Source: Escherichia phage vB_EcoM-101117BS1. From it: 64,000 nucleotides of DNA. Both the position numbers and the translations under genes were made by a program. Where the stretch lies: the sequence record MZ234018.1. One strand, written 5' to 3'. Of this stretch, positions 15,265-61,340 are shown piece after piece (position 1 is the stretch's first letter; each line of letters begins with the position of its first letter). The notes under the pieces were generated by a model. It did not search any database. It saw only the letters and a list, made by a program, of their open reading frames with translations, and had not been told where the DNA came from.

Positions 15265-15436
15265 AATTAATGCAGGATTTACTGAATCTTTGAATGGTCA
15301 TCTTTGTGTGAAAATTTCTGAAAAAGAATACCATGATAGTTCAATTAAAGAAGTTAATCCTCCTATTGTAAGAGCAGACCCTAATATGAAAGTGTGGGTT
15401 GATTCTTATCAAGTCAAAAAATGGTGGCAGTTATGA
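15230..15436 (+). CDS. hypothetical protein
   Basis: 68-aa ORF overlapping previous ORF end. Confidence 0.35.
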   Translation: MMLTHVKFKRLKINAGFTESLNGHLCVKISEKEYHDSSIKEVNPPIVRADPNMKVWVDSYQVKKWWQL

Positions 15437-15631
15437 AAGATGAACACCCAGACTTCTGAAATAGATTATAATAAAATTCGTTCCTCTAAAGAGGAAATGA
15501 TGAGACTCTTTAAAGCGTCTCATGATAAAGCTAAAGCAGAAGGAACTATAAAATATAAGCGCATAAAATTTAAAAGTTCTAACGAGCCTCTGTATGGCGT
15601 ATTATGTGGATAGGAGCTTCGGCTCCTATAT

Positions 15632-18525: not shown

Positions 18526-20204
18526 AGAATTTTAAACTAAACCGAGTTAGGTATCAAAATATAATGTCAGTAGGTGGAAATCCTATTGACATTCAATTAG
18601 ATAAGGTTCAAAAAACTCTTATTACTGGACGAAATGGCGGTGGTAAGTCTACTATGTTAGAAGCCATCACATTTGGGCTTTTTGGCAAGCCATTTCGTGA
18701 TGTAAAGAAAGGTCAATTAATAAACAGCACAAATAAGAAAGAACTTTTAGTTGAACTGTGGATGGAATATGATGAGAAAAAGTATTATATCAAAAGAGGA
18801 CAAAAACCAAACGTTTTCGAAATCACCGTTAACGGTACACGTCTTAATGAATCTGCCAGCAGTAAAGATTTCCAAGCAGAATTTGAACAGCTTATCGGAA
18901 TGTCATATGCCAGTTTCAAGCAGATTGTTGTCCTTGGTACAGCAGGGTATACCCCTTTCATGGGTTTGTCGACCCCTGCACGAAGAAAGCTTGTGGAAGA
19001 CCTGCTTGAGGTAGGAACATTAGCTGAAATGGATAAGCTTAATAAAGCGCTAATACGTGAATTAAATTCACAAAACCAAGTGCTTGATGTTAAAAAAGAT
19101 AGTATTATCCAACAAATTAAAATATATAATGATAACGTTGAACGCCAGAAAAAATTAACGGGTGACAACCTTACTCGTCTACAAAATATGTATGATGATT
19201 TGGCAAAAGAAGCTAGAACGCTAAAATCGGAAATAGAAGAAGCTAATGAAAGATTAGTTAATATTGTTTTGGATGAAGACCCGACTGATGCATTTAATAA
19301 AATCGGTCAAGAAGCAGTTTTAATTAAATCAAAAATTGACTCGTATAATAAAGTCATTAATATGTATCACGAAGGTGGATTATGTCCAACCTGCTTGTCA
19401 CAATTAAGTTCCGGTGATAAAGTTGTTTCTAAAATTAAAGATAAAGTTTCTGAATGTACGCATTCGTTTGAGCAGCTTTCAACGCATCGTGATAATTTAA
19501 AAGTTCTTGTTGATGAATACCGAGATAATATTAAAACCCAACAGTCGTTGGCAAATGATATTCGCAATAAAAAGCAATCTCTAATCACGACGGTAGATAA
19601 AGCTAAAAAAGTTAAAGCGGCTATAGAAAAAGCATCTTCTGAGTTTATTGACCATGCTGATGAAATAGCATTGCTTCAAGAAGAACTTGATAAAATTGTT
19701 AAGACAAAAACTAATTTAGTAATGGAAAAATACCACCGAGGAATTTTGACTGATATGCTCAAAGATTCTGGTATTAAAGGTGCTATTATTAAAAAGTACA
19801 TTCCATTATTTAATAAGCAGATTAACCATTATCTTAAAATAATGGAAGCGGATTATGTGTTTACATTAGATGAAGAATTTAATGAGACAATTAAATCCCG
19901 TGGTCGTGAAGATTTTAGTTATGCTTCATTCAGTCAAGGTGAAAAAGCACGAATTGATATTGCTCTTTTATTTACTTGGCGTGATATTGCTGAAAAAGTT
20001 TCAGGTGTTAAAATAAACACGTTAATTCTTGACGAAGTTTTTGATTCAGCGACCGATGTTGAAGGTGTAAAAGCTATTTCAACTATTTTAGATAGTTTAA
20101 AAAATACTAATGTTTTTGTTATTTCGCATAGAGACCATGACCCACAAGCATATGGTCAGCACCTTCAAATGAAGAAAGTTGGTCGATTTACTGTAATGGT
20201 TTAA
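18522..20204 (+). CDS. 46: recombination ATPase subunit gp46 (Rad50-like)
   Basis: 560 aa; P-loop GRNGGGKST, CPTC zinc hook, C-terminal signature and D-loop; GTG start. Confidence 0.9.
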   Translation: MKNFKLNRVRYQNIMSVGGNPIDIQLDKVQKTLITGRNGGGKSTMLEAITFGLFGKPFRDVKKGQLINSTNKKELLVELWMEYDEKKYYIKRGQKPNVFEITVNGTRLNESASSKDFQAEFEQLIGMSYASFKQIVVLGTAGYTPFMGLSTPARRKLVEDLLEVGTLAEMDKLNKALIRELNSQNQVLDVKKDSIIQQIKIYNDNVERQKKLTGDNLTRLQNMYDDLAKEARTLKSEIEEANERLVNIVLDEDPTDAFNKIGQEAVLIKSKIDSYNKVINMYHEGGLCPTCLSQLSSGDKVVSKIKDKVSECTHSFEQLSTHRDNLKVLVDEYRDNIKTQQSLANDIRNKKQSLITTVDKAKKVKAAIEKASSEFIDHADEIALLQEELDKIVKTKTNLVMEKYHRGILTDMLKDSGIKGAIIKKYIPLFNKQINHYLKIMEADYVFTLDEEFNETIKSRGREDFSYASFSQGEKARIDIALLFTWRDIAEKVSGVKINTLILDEVFDSATDVEGVKAISTILDSLKNTNVFVISHRDHDPQAYGQHLQMKKVGRFTVMV

Positions 20205-20259
20205 TTTATAAGAGATTATGCTTTAATTTATTAGAGTATAATCTCTGTGGAGGAAAAAC

Positions 20260-20448
20260 ATGGAATATTCAACTGGACAACATCTATTAACTATTCCTGA
20301 AATAAAACGATATATTCTGAGAAATAATTTTTCTAATGAAGAGCATATAGTTACTGAATCTATGCTTAGGAATGCATTTAAAGCAGAATATACAAAAATA
20401 ATGTCCAATAGAAATGAAGCTTGGACTGTTACTGATTATTATGACTAA
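20260..20448 (+). CDS. hypothetical protein (at the position of T4 45.2)
   Basis: 62-aa ORF. Confidence 0.45.
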   Translation: MEYSTGQHLLTIPEIKRYILRNNFSNEEHIVTESMLRNAFKAEYTKIMSNRNEAWTVTDYYD

Positions 20449-33247: not shown

Positions 33248-33880
33248 ATGATTTATTATATGCACAAAAATCCACCGTTTAAATACGGTAAATTTCCTGA
33301 TGCACAATGTTATAATATAACGCCTGATGAAAATAACCGTGGATATCTTATTGGCACAATTTTTGTAATTGTTAAAGATAACGAAATCGTTGCCTGGGCA
33401 GATTTTAAAGGTACAACATATGATGTTAATCCGGTGCCTTTCACATATTACAATTTAATGGATTTGGCATACGATTATAATTGGTTTAATCATGACACTT
33501 TGGCTCATATTGAAGGTGTAGGATTTGATATTTCATATTCGGAATACACTTTAAGCCCTATGAGTCGAGCCCATAAAGAACCTGAATATTTTTCATTTAG
33601 GAAACGTGTAAACTTTAAACGCAGCACAGAGTATGTCGGTGGAATCTTTGTTAAAGATAATCGAATTATTCGTATTAATTATCCTTTGAGCGTTAGTCAA
33701 AAAGATATTGATGTTGATTTAGATTTCACTGAAAATAATATTAATAATATTGCTTCTGTGTATTTTGGTATCGATCACAAAATTGTAATATGTGGATATG
33801 AATTACCGTTTGAAGAACAGCCTAAAGTAAAAGTTTCTATTGACGATCAAATTTTTAATGCTTTTATGAATAAAGGTTAA
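33248..33880 (+). CDS. hypothetical protein at the T4 61.2 position (possible AdfA-like)
   Basis: 210-aa ORF; C-terminal tail IDDQIFNAFMNKG is shared with the next ORF. Confidence 0.45.
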   Translation: MIYYMHKNPPFKYGKFPDAQCYNITPDENNRGYLIGTIFVIVKDNEIVAWADFKGTTYDVNPVPFTYYNLMDLAYDYNWFNHDTLAHIEGVGFDISYSEYTLSPMSRAHKEPEYFSFRKRVNFKRSTEYVGGIFVKDNRIIRINYPLSVSQKDIDVDLDFTENNINNIASVYFGIDHKIVICGYELPFEEQPKVKVSIDDQIFNAFMNKG

Positions 33881-33884
33881 TATG
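33836..33884 (+). repeat. 49-bp direct repeat, copy A (3' end of ORF plus junction to next start)
   Basis: tctattgacgatcaaatttttaatgcttttatgaataaaggttaatatg; 3 mismatches to copy B. Confidence 0.8.
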
Positions 33885-34238
33885 TATAGTTCTGAATTTT
33901 CATATTTAAAAATGGAAAAAATTTCATACGATTTTATAGATGAAAAGGTTTATTACAGTTTCCATGAACCGCGTTTTAATAGTGAGGTTGGGTTTATTGT
34001 AGTAAAAGACAATTTCATTTTAAAGATATATTCGGCATTAAAGGATTTTCACTACGAAAATATTAACCTAAAATTTGATAAAGAAAACGTTCGTAATTGT
34101 GCAGTAACAATTACAGGAAATAAAGGTACATGTGTTATGCTATCTGATGAAATTAATGATTTGCTAAATGATGCAGAAAATATTACTGCGCCATCTATTG
34201 ATGACCAAATTTTTAATGCTTTTATGAATAGAGGTTAA
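33882..34238 (+). CDS. hypothetical protein
   Basis: 118-aa ORF ending IDDQIFNAFMNRG. Confidence 0.45.
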   Translation: MYSSEFSYLKMEKISYDFIDEKVYYSFHEPRFNSEVGFIVVKDNFILKIYSALKDFHYENINLKFDKENVRNCAVTITGNKGTCVMLSDEINDLLNDAENITAPSIDDQIFNAFMNRG

Positions 34239-34406: not shown

Positions 34407-35435
34407 ATGTCATCAATACCTTGGATTGATAATGAGTTTGCGTATCGTGCATTGGCTCATTTACCTAAATTCACACAAGTAAATAATAGTTCAACTTTTA
34501 AATTGCGGTTTAGATGTCCTGTTTGTGGAGATTCAAAAACCGACCAGAATAAAGCTCGTGGATGGTATTATGGTGATAATAATGAAGGAAATATTCATTG
34601 TTATAACTGTAATTATCATGCACCAATCGGAATATATTTAAAGGAGTTTGAACCTGATTTATATCGTGAGTATATCTTTGAAATAAGAAAAGAAAAAGGT
34701 AAAAGTCGTCCAGTAGAAAAACCTAAAGAACTTCCTAAGCAACCTGAGAAGAAAATAATTAAATCTCTTCCGTCATGTGTTAGATTAGATAAACTGGCGG
34801 AAGACCATCCAATTATAAAATATGTAAAAGCTCGTTGTATTCCAAAGGATAAATGGAAATATCTTTGGTTTACAACCGAATGGCCTAAATTAGTTAATAG
34901 CATAGCACCGGGAACATACAAAAAGGAAATTTCTGAGCCTCGTCTTGTTATTCCAATTTATAATGCTAATGGAAAAGCTGAGTCTTTTCAAGGACGTGCA
35001 TTAAAGAAAGATGCTCCTCAAAAATATATCACCATTAAAGCTTATCCTGAGGCAACAAAAATTTACGGTGTTGAACGAGTTAAAGATGGTGATGTATATG
35101 TTCTAGAAGGACCTATAGATTCACTTTTTATTGAAAATGGTATAGCTATTACAGGTGGTCAATTAGACCTAGAAGTTGTTCCATTTAAAGATAGACGAGT
35201 GTGGGTTTTAGATAATGAACCTCGTCACCCTGACACTATCAAACGAATGACTAAATTAGTTGATGCTGGAGAAAGGGTTATGTTTTGGGATAAATCTCCC
35301 TGGAAATCAAAAGATGTCAATGATATGATTAGAAAGGAAGGTGCAACCCCTGAACAAATTATGGAATATATGAAAAATAATATTGCCCAGGGGTTGATGG
35401 CTAAAATGCGGCTATCTAAATATGCTAAGATTTAA
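34407..35435 (+). CDS. 61: DNA primase gp61
   Basis: 342 aa; N-terminal zinc ribbon CPVCGDS...CYNC and TOPRIM domain. Confidence 0.95.
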   Translation: MSSIPWIDNEFAYRALAHLPKFTQVNNSSTFKLRFRCPVCGDSKTDQNKARGWYYGDNNEGNIHCYNCNYHAPIGIYLKEFEPDLYREYIFEIRKEKGKSRPVEKPKELPKQPEKKIIKSLPSCVRLDKLAEDHPIIKYVKARCIPKDKWKYLWFTTEWPKLVNSIAPGTYKKEISEPRLVIPIYNANGKAESFQGRALKKDAPQKYITIKAYPEATKIYGVERVKDGDVYVLEGPIDSLFIENGIAITGGQLDLEVVPFKDRRVWVLDNEPRHPDTIKRMTKLVDAGERVMFWDKSPWKSKDVNDMIRKEGATPEQIMEYMKNNIAQGLMAKMRLSKYAKI

Positions 35436-35632
35436 ATCAACCCAACTAAAGCAAATGCTAAATCTACAAATGTATCAAGAGTAACTACTGGAATATTAAT
35501 ACCATGCGCAATTGCAACAGGTGATAGAATAAAGTTCCAGAGTAAAATTCCTACCATAGCAGAAATAGTAAAAGCTATACGTTTTTTATTACCTTTTATG
35601 GCATTAACAAGTGCCATTAATTTTTGTACCAT
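35432..35632 (-). CDS. small membrane protein encoded antisense to the early-gene block
   Basis: 66 aa with two hydrophobic segments; AAGGAGG SD 4 nt upstream of ATG on the - strand. Confidence 0.4.
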   Translation of the reverse strand: MVQKLMALVNAIKGNKKRIAFTISAMVGILLWNFILSPVAIAHGINIPVVTLDTFVDLAFALVGLI

Positions 35633-35645
35633 ATGTCCTCCTTAT

Positions 35646-35669
35646 TGCTTTATATATTTATTGTATAAT
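35646..35669 (+). promoter_or_regulatory. MotA-dependent middle promoter candidate upstream of gene 56
   Basis: TGCTTTA 35646-35652, 11-bp spacer, TATAAT 35664-35669. Confidence 0.5.
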
Positions 35670-35703
35670 TAATCTACTAACCCATGAATTGAAAGGAAAA
35701 ATA

Positions 35704-36222
35704 ATGGCTTACTTTAATGAATGTGCTCATTTGATCGAAGGTGTTGATAAAGCAAATCGTGCATATGCTGAGAATATTATGCACAATATTGACCCACTGC
35801 AGGTTATGCTTGATATGCAGCGGCATTTACAGATTCGTTTGGCTAATGATAAACCAGAAACAAATCGTCATCCTGATTCACTTGAAACCGCAGGAGAAGT
35901 TCTTGCTTGGTTGCGAAACCAAGACGATTATATCGCAGATGAAACTCGCGAACTATATACTTCTCTTGGTGGTATGAGTAATGGTGAAAAAGAAGCTTCT
36001 GCTGTATGGAAACCTTGGAAGAAACGTTATTCTGAAATGCAATCCAAGAAAATTCAAGATTTATCTCCCGAAGATCAGCTTGAAATTAAATTTGAACTGA
36101 TTGACCAATTTCACTTTTTCATGAATAAATTTATTGCTCTTGGAATGTCAGCTGAAGAAATCTTTAAACTTTATTACCTGAAAAATGCTGAAAACTTCGC
36201 TCGTCAAGACCGAGGTTATTAA
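35704..36222 (+). CDS. 56: dCTP pyrophosphatase gp56 (MazG-like)
   Basis: 172 aa from ATG 35704 (MAYFNECAHLIEGVDKA...). Confidence 0.7.
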   Translation: MAYFNECAHLIEGVDKANRAYAENIMHNIDPLQVMLDMQRHLQIRLANDKPETNRHPDSLETAGEVLAWLRNQDDYIADETRELYTSLGGMSNGEKEASAVWKPWKKRYSEMQSKKIQDLSPEDQLEIKFELIDQFHFFMNKFIALGMSAEEIFKLYYLKNAENFARQDRGY

Positions 36223-36422
36223 TGGCTCGTTTAAATAAGCGTCAGCTTAAGAAAGCCCATAAGAAACGTATTGACCAGCTATTTAAAGATTATAACAAGG
36301 AGCTCGTATGTGAGCTCTTAACTAATCAACTTCGTATGGTTGATTGGGTTATAGAAGAAGGTCCTGACGAAATTTTTGTCAGCGAAGAAGCCTTAAAATT
36401 AATTATAGAGCATTCAAAATGA
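36222..36422 (+). CDS. hypothetical protein
   Basis: 66-aa ORF. Confidence 0.4.
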   Translation: MARLNKRQLKKAHKKRIDQLFKDYNKELVCELLTNQLRMVDWVIEEGPDEIFVSEEALKLIIEHSK

Positions 36423-36628
36423 AATTTGATTTCTACGCGTGGCAAAAAGCCGGGAGACCGGCTACTCGAGCATTTGGTTCTGATGGATATAATATTAGAG
36501 CCCATTGGAAATTTAATGCTCCAGAAGATTATTCTCCGGTAATTATTAACGGTGATGTTGTTATATTAACTAAAATCGGATATTTTAACGTTCCGCGAGA
36601 ATTTATTATAAATAATCATGTAATTTAA
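36419..36628 (+). CDS. hypothetical protein
   Basis: 69-aa ORF. Confidence 0.4.
   Translation: MKFDFYAWQKAGRPATRAFGSDGYNIRAHWKFNAPEDYSPVIINGDVVILTKIGYFNVPREFIINNHVI
36607..36614 (+). promoter_or_regulatory. T4 late promoter (TATAAATA) upstream of soc
   Basis: TATAAATA located 30 nt upstream of the soc ATG. Confidence 0.5.
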
Positions 36629-53046: not shown

Positions 53047-53241
53047 ATGTTAGGTTATCAAGCACGAGTAAAAGAAGAATACGATCAATTAATGCTCAAA
53101 ATTAATGCACTGAGTAAATTTTTAGAAAGCACAAAGTTTCTAACGGTTAGTGCAGTTGAGCAAGAACTGCTACTTTCACAGTTCATCTCAATGAAATCTT
53201 ATGCTGAATGTTTAGAGAAAAGAATTGCACAATTCAAATAA
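53047..53241 (+). CDS. hypothetical protein
   Basis: 64-aa ORF. Confidence 0.4.
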   Translation: MLGYQARVKEEYDQLMLKINALSKFLESTKFLTVSAVEQELLLSQFISMKSYAECLEKRIAQFK

Positions 53242-58591: not shown

Positions 58592-58601
58592 GGAATAAAT
58601 A

Positions 58602-60683: not shown

Positions 60684-61340
60684 TTATTTAGCCCTTCCTA
60701 ATATTCTGGCCGCCTGAGCACATATTGATTCAAGGCGGTCATTACTTATATGATCATTTCTATACCAGTACATTGTTATTGTTCCAGCATAGATATTATC
60801 CAAATTAAAATATGGACAACTATACATGTAGTTTATTTCGGGAGTAGGCTTTTTAGTTGGTAAAAAAGCAAATTTTGAGTCAGAATAATAATGACGTCCA
60901 TTTAAATGAACTATATATTCATCCATAGTTTTATCAACAGGATATCCTCCAAGTGATTTTTCAGTTATTGTTGAAGGTAATCTTCCTTCGTATGCTATAA
61001 TATCAACAAAATAGTTTAAGTTTTTAGGGCGGAAAGAATACACCGCACTAAAGTCTGCCTCAGATGATATATGAACTATCTGGAGTTGTTCCAGGGCGAC
61101 AGATTCAAAGCGTGCATTTCTTTCCTTTTCAATAATTTCACTGTATGTTTCATACTTTGATTGCTTATAGTACTCAAAGAAACTATCTCCCCTATACCAA
61201 ACAATCGCCATCATAAATAAAAGAATTACGACAGCTACCCGGGAAGCAAGAACCTTCCCAGTAGCGTTATCTTTGAACAAGCGATCTAGAACACCAAACA
61301 GAATATCAGAGGGCGAAAATGATATTCTAGGTGCTGCCAT
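60684..61340 (-). CDS. t: holin T
   Basis: 218 aa with N-terminal TM segment; matches T4 holin. Confidence 0.9.
   Translation of the reverse strand: MAAPRISFSPSDILFGVLDRLFKDNATGKVLASRVAVVILLFMMAIVWYRGDSFFEYYKQSKYETYSEIIEKERNARFESVALEQLQIVHISSEADFSAVYSFRPKNLNYFVDIIAYEGRLPSTITEKSLGGYPVDKTMDEYIVHLNGRHYYSDSKFAFLPTKKPTPEINYMYSCPYFNLDNIYAGTITMYWYRNDHISNDRLESICAQAARILGRAK

Follow-up and report, generated by a model that had tools for sequence, protein, structure and literature searches.

We analyzed a window of 64,000 nucleotides of Escherichia phage vB_EcoM-101117BS1 (MZ234018.1), centering on the interval between gene 61 and gene 56 (Table 1). A sequence-only reading had placed there, on the minus strand, a 66-aa ORF preceded by a strong AAGGAGG; this ORF, here called orf66, is real. 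Its stop codon shares 4 bp (TTAA) with that of gene 61, and the two genes are convergent. The product of gene 56, on the other flank, is annotated in relatives as dCTP pyrophosphatase. The phrog_2024 profile matched orf66 with an E-value of 1.4e-31 (residues 2–66 onto positions 1–65 of 65), and the family is already catalogued, as a hypothetical protein, in hundreds of T4-like genomes. The remaining minus-strand ORFs of a gap-ORF scan (1–60.7 kb) were short, mostly non-ATG, and of low complexity, which is consistent with the earlier claim that orf66 is the only convincing antisense gene in the plus-strand block. The end of that block is marked by holin t (60684–61340, minus strand).

Table 1. 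Features of the interval between genes 61 and 56, in window coordinates.
Feature	Position	Strand	Remarks
Gene 61, DNA primase	34407..35435	+	phrog_47, E 1e-106; near-identical to T4 gp61 translation
orf66 CDS, 66-aa probable small membrane protein	35432..35632	-	ATG-started ORF; phrog_2024 / RB69ORF029w family
Terminator-like hairpin (ATGGCATT-AACA-AGTGCCAT) and T-run	35598..35627	+	within first codons of orf66
orf66 Shine-Dalgarno AAGGAGG	35637..35643	-	4 nt before ATG
Junction, 20 bp where T4 has the 899-bp dam cassette (NC_000866 16826-17724)	35644..35663	.	local blastn
MotA box TGCTTTA, gene 56 middle promoter	35646..35652	+	aligns with T4 'mot-box of promoter P(M) 16.53', RB69, DK-13, JS10
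Candidate T4-type late promoter AATAAATA, A(-13) variant of TATAAATA	35655..35662	-	7/8 match to TATAAATA
-10 element TATAAT, gene 56 middle promoter	35664..35669	+	11 bp after MotA box; inferred start site near 35676
Gene 56, dCTPase/dUTPase, NTP pyrophosphohydrolase gp56	35704..36222	+	phrog_173, E 2.4e-44; divergent from orf66

The same reading had proposed a MotA-box middle promoter for gene 56 beside orf66, and this also held. The element has the features of a MotA-dependent promoter, namely TTATTGCTTTA, 11 bp, and TATAAT; such promoters have a MotA box (a/t)(a/t)(a/t)TGCTTtA, a spacing of about 11–13 bp, and a sigma-70 −10 element TAnnnT, and they lack a −35 element. By alignment, it is the homolog of T4 P(M)16.53, which the T4 record gives as the source of the gene 56 transcript and of the oriA primer. 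P(M)16.53 resembles the window promoter in its GCTT-TA MotA-box core, 11–12 bp spacer, TAtAAT −10 element, and conserved leader ATGAATTGAAAGGAAAA, and these four parts align across T4, RB69, DK-13, JS10, and the window. A middle promoter, Pm:16038, is predicted at the same place in RB69 in the supplement of PMC1524935, and motA of phage vB_Eco_NR1 lies in a stretch aligning with about 57.3–57.9 kb of the window. Whereas P(M)16.53 follows dam in T4, the gene 56 promoter here directly abuts orf66; therefore, the late-type box of orf66 (see below) lies inside the middle-promoter spacer, on the other strand. The terminator-like hairpin on the early strand is identical in T4 and is not conserved outside Tequatrovirus. 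It may end transcription from gene 61 before the gene 56 promoter is reached. As a general explanation for the conservation of the N-terminal motif of orf66, this hairpin was rejected because it is Tequatrovirus-specific.

T4 does encode its Dam methyltransferase in this neighborhood, between genes 61 and 56, as the earlier reading had stated, and its statement that the window contains no Dam-like ORF was borne out: tblastn of T4 Dam against the window gave a best E-value of 0.8, and no window ORF with any similarity to Dam carries a [DNS]PP[YFW] (DPPY-type) motif. The comparison with T4 at this interval, which had been suggested as a check, was run by local blastn. Positions 35100–35643 of the window match T4 18270–17725 at 96.7%, positions 35664–36000 match T4 16825–16492 at 75%, and homology to T4 resumes exactly at the −10 element. 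The order in T4 is 61, orf66 orthologue, dam, 56, with the cassette, extra in T4, inserted between the RBS of orf66 and the −10 element of the gene 56 promoter. The T4 orthologue (NC_000866 17738–17938, plus strand) is identical at 64 of 66 residues and lies in the 61–dam gap. The suggestion that orf66 takes the place of an expected dam-like gene had to be dropped: orf66 is not a dam substitute because T4 carries the orthologue and dam side by side, and the present phage is merely without the 899-bp cassette. T4 dam, which encodes a Dam-family N6-adenine methyltransferase, is unrelated to orf66.

Besides T4 and T2, about 180 records have the cassette in the 61–56 interval, in contrast to its absence here. 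T4-type Dam (at least 90% identity) was found in 182 phage records, and a Dam homologue is present in about 190 of some 500 records of Tequatrovirus. Judged from these record comparisons, dam is an accessory cassette whose presence or absence is a common polymorphism. Phage vB_Eco_NR1, which aligns with the whole window at 96–98% identity with indels (one 501 bp stretch at 100%), has an empty 61–56 interval, yet it encodes another kind of Dam-family gene, located between nrdB and nrdA. This second type of Dam is rare (9 records at 60% identity or more). A second antisense gene of NR1 (NR1_187) is not present in the window. For an 18-kb query from the window, KMB22 was the best-matching record (98.6%). 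At the level of the window, the finding is an ordinary one, comprising a hypothetical ORF, a known gene 56/oriA promoter, and a common dam polymorphism.

We then consider how orf66 is distributed among phages. tblastn with orf66 matched 692 phage records, of which 686 cover at least 80% of the protein; Tequatrovirus records with orf66 number about 500, and a further clade occurs in phages of Klebsiella, Salmonella, Citrobacter, and Enterobacter. Homologues of 62–68 aa are found in at least eight genera of enterobacterial T-even-type phages. Opposite-strand placement between 61 and 56 is seen in Tequatrovirus, Mosigvirus, Gaprivervirus, Dhakavirus, and Gelderlandvirus, as well as in a Karamvirus-like phage, phage Ursula, and a metagenomic contig; the individual loci with this placement are those of the window, T4, JK45, DK-13, STP4-a, Ursula, JS10, RB69, and MY742. 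In Klebsiella phage PKO111 (Jiaodavirus), the primase side is kept and the upstream neighbor is a hypothetical protein of about 490 aa, not gene 56. In DK-13, a homing endonuclease is located between the orf66 homologue and the primase, with gene 56 still adjoining. The stop codons of orf66 and gene 61 overlap in Tequatrovirus, Mosigvirus, STP4-a, Ursula, and MY742; in PKO111 and the metagenomic clade, the two genes do not overlap. When 1.84 billion representatives were searched exhaustively with an HMM profile built from 20 family members, 8 matches were returned, all of the same family: proteins of 61–68 aa, besides two fragments, with no link to a characterized protein. No feature is annotated at the position of the orthologue in the T4 records checked (RefSeq NC_000866, X01416, and KJ477684). 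The observation has curatorial value, and the gene is an inexpensive, well-defined knockout target in the best-studied phage.

Pairwise dN/dS of orf66 was 0.1–0.4; between clades, dS is saturated, yet the length stays constant at 62–68 aa. Seventeen columns are invariant among 20 diverse family sequences; W32, N33, F34, P38, G44, P48, V56, and D57 do not vary, and A42 and H43 hardly do. The family has an invariant W-N-[FY]-x3-P-x-A-x2-H-G-x3-P-x3-[DE] motif that is also present in distant members (P0077–P0079). Conservation peaks in the middle and 3' part of the gene, away from the promoters, and the (A)GGAGG is kept at all 14 homologous loci compared. The substitution pattern indicates that the reading frame is under purifying selection. 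Because the protein is conserved across genera with dN/dS of 0.1–0.4, orf66 is a genuine gene, far beyond chance.

Upstream of this gene, the candidate late promoter AATAAATA is located 22 nt from the ATG, with an inferred start site near 35649 on the minus strand. ATAAATA occurs only 7 times in the window against 39.9 ± 6.6 expected, a five-fold depletion, and TATAAATA occurs twice against 11.3 expected. Four of the 7 ATAAATA copies are found 17–30 nt upstream of ORF starts, namely those of endonuclease VII (gene 49), soc, holin t, and orf66; genes 49, soc, and t, preceded by three of the other six copies, are T4 late genes. Among orf66 homologues, TAAATA occurs 14–21 nt upstream of the ATG in 9 of 9 lineages tested (chance expectation 0.5–2% each), and MY742 has a perfect TATAAATA. 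The RBS and a late-like (N)ATAAATA/TAAATA box 14–22 nt before the ATG are retained, whereas the remaining intergenic DNA diverges. The −13 position of the box is A here and G in T4, against a consensus of T, and STP4-a and Ursula have only TTAAATA. Among T4 late promoters, A(−13) is the commonest variant (9 of 50 listed sites; PMC2988020), and T at −13 is poorly conserved among T4-like phages (PMC1524935).

The box borders directly on the AT-rich upstream portion of the MotA box in some genera, and its conservation could partly belong to the middle promoter. We also considered whether ATAAATA is a mere AT-rich flank of the MotA box. This explanation was weakened, as the distance of the motif to the ATG is constant while its placement relative to the MotA box varies; in T4, the ATAAATA-type motif stays with the orf66 orthologue, and the gene 56 promoter is about 900 bp away, across dam.

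According to Nolan et al. 2006 (PMC1524935), late promoters were found only upstream of orthologues of T4 late genes, and the supplement files of that study that were examined hold no late-promoter entry near RB69ORF029w. A T4 dRNA-seq preprint gives 22 antisense TSSs (bioRxiv 10.1101/2024.04.04.588121). From the conserved box and its spacing, we would class orf66 as a late gene under a late-type promoter of its own rather than as an antisense member of the early block. In this case, gp55-RNA polymerase would transcribe it late, from about position 35649 on the minus strand.

The orf66 product is probably a membrane protein. The two hydrophobic segments described earlier are both present (residues ~19–42 and ~45–66), but only the first is a robust transmembrane (TM) helix across the family, in which one hydrophobic core is conserved. 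For RB69ORF029w, one TM segment is predicted at 21–41 in the PMC1524935 supplement. An AF2 model (pLDDT 78) gave helices at 2–14, 16–42, and 52–63. Net charge is +5 at the N-terminus and −2 at the C-terminus (…DLAFALVGLI), where the last 17 aa have a mean hydropathy of +1.9 and a net charge of −2. The protein may insert into the inner membrane as a single-pass, N-in/C-out protein, whose basic N-terminus would stay cytoplasmic, with residues ~19–42 forming the one TM helix and the C-terminal tail, which is short, acidic, and amphipathic, lying on the periplasmic side. It would then act via the invariant motif, which in this orientation would be periplasm-proximal. The sole tryptic peptide of useful length is a hydrophobic stretch of about 48 residues, which may explain why proteomics would miss such a protein.

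Several other explanations of the locus were weighed. The open frame could be no gene at all, only a by-product of conserved non-coding elements, that is, the gene 61 terminator and the dam/56 promoters. A terminator-like hairpin does lie inside its first codons on the early strand, and the ORF has never been called in T4 reference annotations. However, the hairpin is confined to Tequatrovirus, whereas the ORF occurs in at least eight genera at dN/dS 0.1–0.4, with constant length, conserved start and RBS, and its strongest conservation away from the promoters. We find this explanation hardly credible, and the substitution pattern has effectively refuted it. The main product could also be an RNA, with the peptide secondary: a late transcript running antisense through the primase gene and beyond could act by transcriptional interference or by dsRNA-mediated decay of 61/41 operon mRNAs. 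The convergent arrangement with overlapping stops in the phages listed above would favor such a transcript, as would the absence of a minus-strand terminator within 4.4 kb downstream of orf66, and several T4 sites are known to be transcribed from both strands, each at its own time (PMC2988020). Nevertheless, we regard it as quite improbable, given the strong purifying selection on amino acids and the protein motifs that stay invariant across clades despite saturated dS; moreover, in DK-13 the homing endonuclease gene separates the homologue from the primase, gene overlap is lacking in PKO111 and the metagenomic clade, and the strong RBS is conserved everywhere.

Two further explanations accept the protein and assign it a different role or timing. 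A holin-, pinholin-, or type-I-toxin-like peptide that permeabilizes or depolarizes the inner membrane would likewise be small, hydrophobic, and probably late, with at least one TM helix. In the Mosigvirus clade, this helix is rich in Ala/Gly/Ser (AIAAIVVGGIISW), a composition that resembles releasable signal-anchor domains. UniProt names one family member 'Holin' (vB_EcoM_OE5505), but this label is an unreviewed automatic name, and no similarity was found to any holin family in Pfam, NCBIfam, or PHROGs. Moreover, instead of a hydrophilic, highly charged C-terminal domain, orf66 has a hydrophobic C-terminus and an N-terminal basic cluster. Its flanks are replication and nucleotide genes and not lysis genes: holin t is encoded at the far end of the plus-strand block, endolysin e is outside the window, and the NR1 lysozyme (e) gene is far outside the window-aligning stretch. 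T-even phages already have the T holin. On balance, we think a holin-like function improbable. Expression of orf66 as an early or middle gene from a sigma-70-type promoter, for host takeover or superinfection exclusion, seems very improbable. Such a role has a precedent in Imm, a small membrane exclusion protein of T4 that is made early. For novel ORFs of T4-like phages, co-expression with early genes has also been the general inference (PMC1524935). Against this, the minus strand upstream of orf66 yielded no sigma-70-like promoter, early and middle T4 transcripts are all of opposite polarity (PMC2988020), and the late-type box is conserved and has the same kind of placement as those of genes 49, soc, and t. 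Overall, we consider it likely that orf66 is a bona fide conserved gene for a late-expressed inner-membrane protein and that dam is an independent accessory cassette.

Searches for a function returned little. Scans of Pfam, NCBIfam, and PADLOC with orf66 at E ≤ 10 gave no matches, a sequence-profile search of the PDB gave only a chance match (NqrE, E 1.5), and Foldseek with the model found nothing in the PDB and only family members in BFVD. Literature searches covering T4 TSS and Ribo-seq evidence, RB69ORF029w, and phrog_2024 found no paper on the gene. The most likely role of the late membrane protein would be a late envelope function, for example in the timing or inhibition of lysis or in protecting the membrane, which we offer as a tentative guess from its size, topology, and inferred timing. 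It is rather doubtful whether T-even phages have in orf66 an overlooked, near-universal late component of the inner membrane with a specific role at the periplasmic face, such as an unrecognized partner in lysis timing or inhibition or a protection against superinfection or lysis from without.

With regard to known systems, T4 Imm (superinfection immunity) and RI (antiholin) offer functional analogies only. Both are small, phage-encoded, and located in the inner membrane, and they work on the periplasmic side of the envelope. Imm differs from orf66 in timing, length, and topology, being early, 83 aa long, and equipped with two TM helices; no sequence relationship between Imm and orf66 was found, and the orf66-family profile finds no paralogue among window ORFs. 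The Imm gene of NR1 lies within the stretch aligning with the window, and rI lies outside the window. RB69ORF029w (phrog_2024), an uncharacterized small membrane protein, belongs to the same family as orf66 and has the same length, position, and orientation, with no difference between them. In its transcription signals, orf66 resembles T4 late genes whose gp55-type promoters lie within or next to the early region (gene 49, for its short transcript, soc, and t), all of which share an (A/T)ATAAATA box 17–30 nt before the start codon. Compared with these genes, the orf66 box has A instead of T at −13, its late transcription is predicted from the sequence signature, and, unlike 49 and soc, orf66 points against the early genes.

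The 66-codon reading frame on the minus strand between genes 61 and 56 (orf66) is a real gene, and it belongs to a known but uncharacterized family. The window itself is a segment of a Tequatrovirus (T4-like) genome, with 96–98% identity, interrupted by indels, to phage vB_Eco_NR1 (98.6% for the best database record matching an 18-kb query), and a 501-bp query around orf66 matched 505 phage records (21 at 99% identity or higher). All elements described in the sequence-only reading, namely the minus-strand frame, its AAGGAGG and a TGCTTTA/11 bp/TATAAT promoter, were located where that reading had placed them. The stop codons of orf66 and the primase gene share 4 bp.

Features of the gene 61–gene 56 interval and the T4 counterpart of orf66 (window coordinates unless an accession is given)
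Feature	Position	Strand	Basis or remark
Gene 61 (primase)	34407-35435	+	phrog_47, E 1e-106
orf66, ATG start, 66 aa	35432-35632	-	ORF between genes 61 and 56
AAGGAGG of orf66	4 nt upstream of ATG	-	Sequence
TGCTTTA	35646-35652	+	Within 71-bp intergenic stretch
Candidate late promoter AATAAATA	35655-35662	-	22 nt upstream of orf66 ATG
TATAAT	35664-35669	+	11-bp spacer after TGCTTTA; same 71-bp stretch
Gene 56 (dCTPase)	35704-36222	+	phrog_173, E 2e-44
T4 orf66 counterpart	NC_000866 17738-17938	+	64/66 identity to orf66

orf66 matched phrog_2024 (function category: unknown) over its full length (E 1.4e-31), and its annotation in close relatives is "hypothetical protein". tblastn retrieved 692 phage records, 686 of which covered at least 80% of the protein; identities exceeded 90% in about 500 records (Tequatrovirus) and were 44–57% in 190. 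When 1.84 billion cluster representatives were searched with a profile, the only additions were a few small, more distant proteins, from T4-like phages of Klebsiella, Salmonella, Citrobacter, and Enterobacter. No paralog was found in the window. The opposite-strand position between primase and gene 56 was kept at nearly all inspected loci (T4, JK45, RB69 [RB69ORF029w], DK-13 and TH40 [Gaprivervirus], JS10 [Dhakavirus, unannotated], STP4-a [Gelderlandvirus], Ursula, MY742, and a metagenomic contig). In PKO111 (Jiaodavirus), a ~490-aa hypothetical protein, not gene 56, lies upstream of the homolog, and in DK-13 a homing-endonuclease gene lies between primase and the homolog, which still adjoins gene 56. 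Pairwise dN/dS was 0.1–0.2 within clades and 0.2–0.4 between clades, where synonymous sites are saturated. Among 20 diverse family members, 17 columns were invariant, including AIKG, WNF, P38, G44, P48, and V56-D57. The JS10 RefSeq entry (NC_012741) leaves its 66-aa homolog (MGSIFYQIWKLAEKKDKK...; ~15341–15541, in the 56–61 gap) without annotation, and ATAAATA lies upstream.

The sequence-only reading placed orf66 where a dam-like gene would be expected. As that reading states, T4 has Dam between 61 and 56, and the window lacks a Dam homolog (best E 0.8); the gene and promoter also stood, but the idea that orf66 occupies the place of dam did not. T4 keeps both: its orf66 counterpart lies in the 309 bp separating gene 61 from dam and is annotated in neither RefSeq, the original X01416 entry, nor KJ477684. 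Since T4 has orf66 too, orf66 is no replacement for dam. Local alignments of window 35100–35643 with T4 18270–17725 (96.7%, primase/orf66 side) and of 35664–36000 with T4 16825–16492 (75%, gene 56 side) show that T4 has 899 bp (dam and its own signals included) against 20 bp here, with the junction between the orf66 ribosome-binding site and the gene 56 promoter -10; the sharp change in identity makes the junction a mosaic (recombination) boundary as well. As dam is an accessory gene, its absence is an ordinary polymorphism: T4-type Dam (at least 90% identity) occurred in 182 phage records, and the uninterrupted 61-orf-56 arrangement in 293 (at least 80% coverage of the 501-bp query). NR1, with the same empty interval, carries a different Dam-family gene at 70000–70791, between nrdB and nrdA (33.6% identity to T4 Dam, E 2e-38; IDPPYL motif), a position that mobE holds in T4. 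This second type is rare (9 records at 60% identity or more: 5 at 95% or more and 4 at 60–80%). Most likely, vB_EcoM-101117BS1 lacks any Dam outside the 64-kb window as well.

No sigma-70-like promoter was found upstream of orf66 on its strand. Instead, AATAAATA corresponds to the T4 late-promoter box TATAAATA with A at -13, the commonest natural variant (9 of 50 listed T4 sites; PMC2988020), and among T4-like phages in general, T(-13) shows poor conservation (PMC1524935). ATAAATA is strongly avoided in the window (7 observed vs 39.9 ± 6.6 expected), and TATAAATA occurred twice against 11.3 expected. Four of the seven ATAAATA copies lie 17–30 nt upstream of an ORF start. One of these ORFs is orf66; the other three, gene 49 (endonuclease VII), soc, and holin t, are late or late-promoter-bearing genes in T4. 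Of the other copies, that at 53238 precedes a GC hairpin and T-run and resembles part of a terminator region, and that at 58595 overlaps a ribosome-binding site and start. TAAATA was found 14–21 nt upstream of the ATG in 9 of 9 lineages, where the intergenic DNA is past alignment (chance expectation, 0.5–2% per locus), and MY742 has a perfect TATAAATA. Taken together, box match, depletion, placement, and conservation suggest that orf66 transcription would be late and gp55-dependent, starting near 35649 (-). The late promoters in the searched supplement files of Nolan et al. (PMC1524935) include none upstream of RB69ORF029w. Because no minus-strand terminator was found within 4.4 kb downstream, the transcript may run on antisense into the primase gene.

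With dam absent here, the box falls within the spacer of the gene 56 middle promoter, on the opposite strand. In T4, it stays beside the ORF, with dam and a distance of 900 bp between it and the gene 56 promoter, which argues that the box belongs to orf66 rather than to the middle promoter. The MotA-box promoter proposed for gene 56 is itself supported by homology: the GCTT-TA core, 11–12-bp spacer, TAtAAT -10, and leader ATGAATTGAAAGGAAAA aligned among the window, T4, RB69, DK-13, and JS10; the T4 counterpart is annotated as "mot-box of promoter P(M) 16.53", whose transcript also primes oriA according to the T4 record, and at the corresponding RB69 position a middle promoter, Pm:16038, has been predicted (PMC1524935). 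On the early strand, a terminator-like hairpin with a T-run (35598–35627, +) lies inside the first orf66 codons; it is identical in T4, was not found outside Tequatrovirus, and could end gene 61 transcripts just ahead of the gene 56 promoter.

A 118-aa ORF at 33882–34238 (+), between 61.2 and 61.1 and adjoining 33248–33880 (+), has no counterpart in T4 and carries the annotation HY01_0032-like in NR1. It is paralogous to the gp61.2 C-terminal half (37% identity, E 6e-11), and the two share the C-terminal end SIDDQIFNAFMN(K/R)G. Between gene 56 and soc (36222–36628, +) lie two small ORFs of 66 aa (phrog_5782 "virion structural protein", E 4e-41) and 69 aa, where T4 has the segF homing endonuclease and NR1 nothing (36258–36592 is an insertion relative to NR1). 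NR1_187, a 238-aa opposite-strand ORF between 45.2 and 46 (NR1 130969–131685), is absent at ~20190–20263 (73 bp vs ~790 bp in NR1).

An AF2 model of orf66 built from a 20-sequence alignment (mean pLDDT 78) has helices at 2–14, 16–42, and 52–63, with a loop at 43–51. Hydrophobic segment 1 is conserved family-wide. Strong hydrophobicity of segment 2 is limited to three clades (Tequatrovirus, Mosigvirus, and Gaprivervirus); in distant members, this segment is short and its hydrophobicity weak. A single TM at 21–41 is predicted for RB69ORF029w (PMC1524935). The net charge is +5 at the N-terminus and -2 in the C-terminal part. On the most parsimonious topology, the protein would cross the membrane once, N-in/C-out, by a single TM helix, leaving a short, acidic and amphipathic tail at the periplasmic face, where the invariant W-N-F, P, A-H-G, P, D/E, and V-D residues are predicted to group.

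We are fairly confident that orf66 is a genuine gene for a membrane protein and that it is probably transcribed late. Of wider interest, the T4 reference annotation omits a gene that is conserved across T-even-type genera, bears a late-promoter signature, and lends itself to easy testing. Searches of Pfam, NCBIfam, PADLOC, PDB, BFVD, and the 1.84 billion representatives linked the family to no characterized protein. Judging only from size, topology, and inferred timing, our tentative best guess is that orf66 acts late at the envelope, for example in the timing or inhibition of lysis or in protecting the membrane. One UniProt entry of the family carries the automatic name "Holin"; however, holins have a charged C-terminal tail and linkage to lysis genes, both of which orf66 lacks, and T-even phages already possess the T holin.
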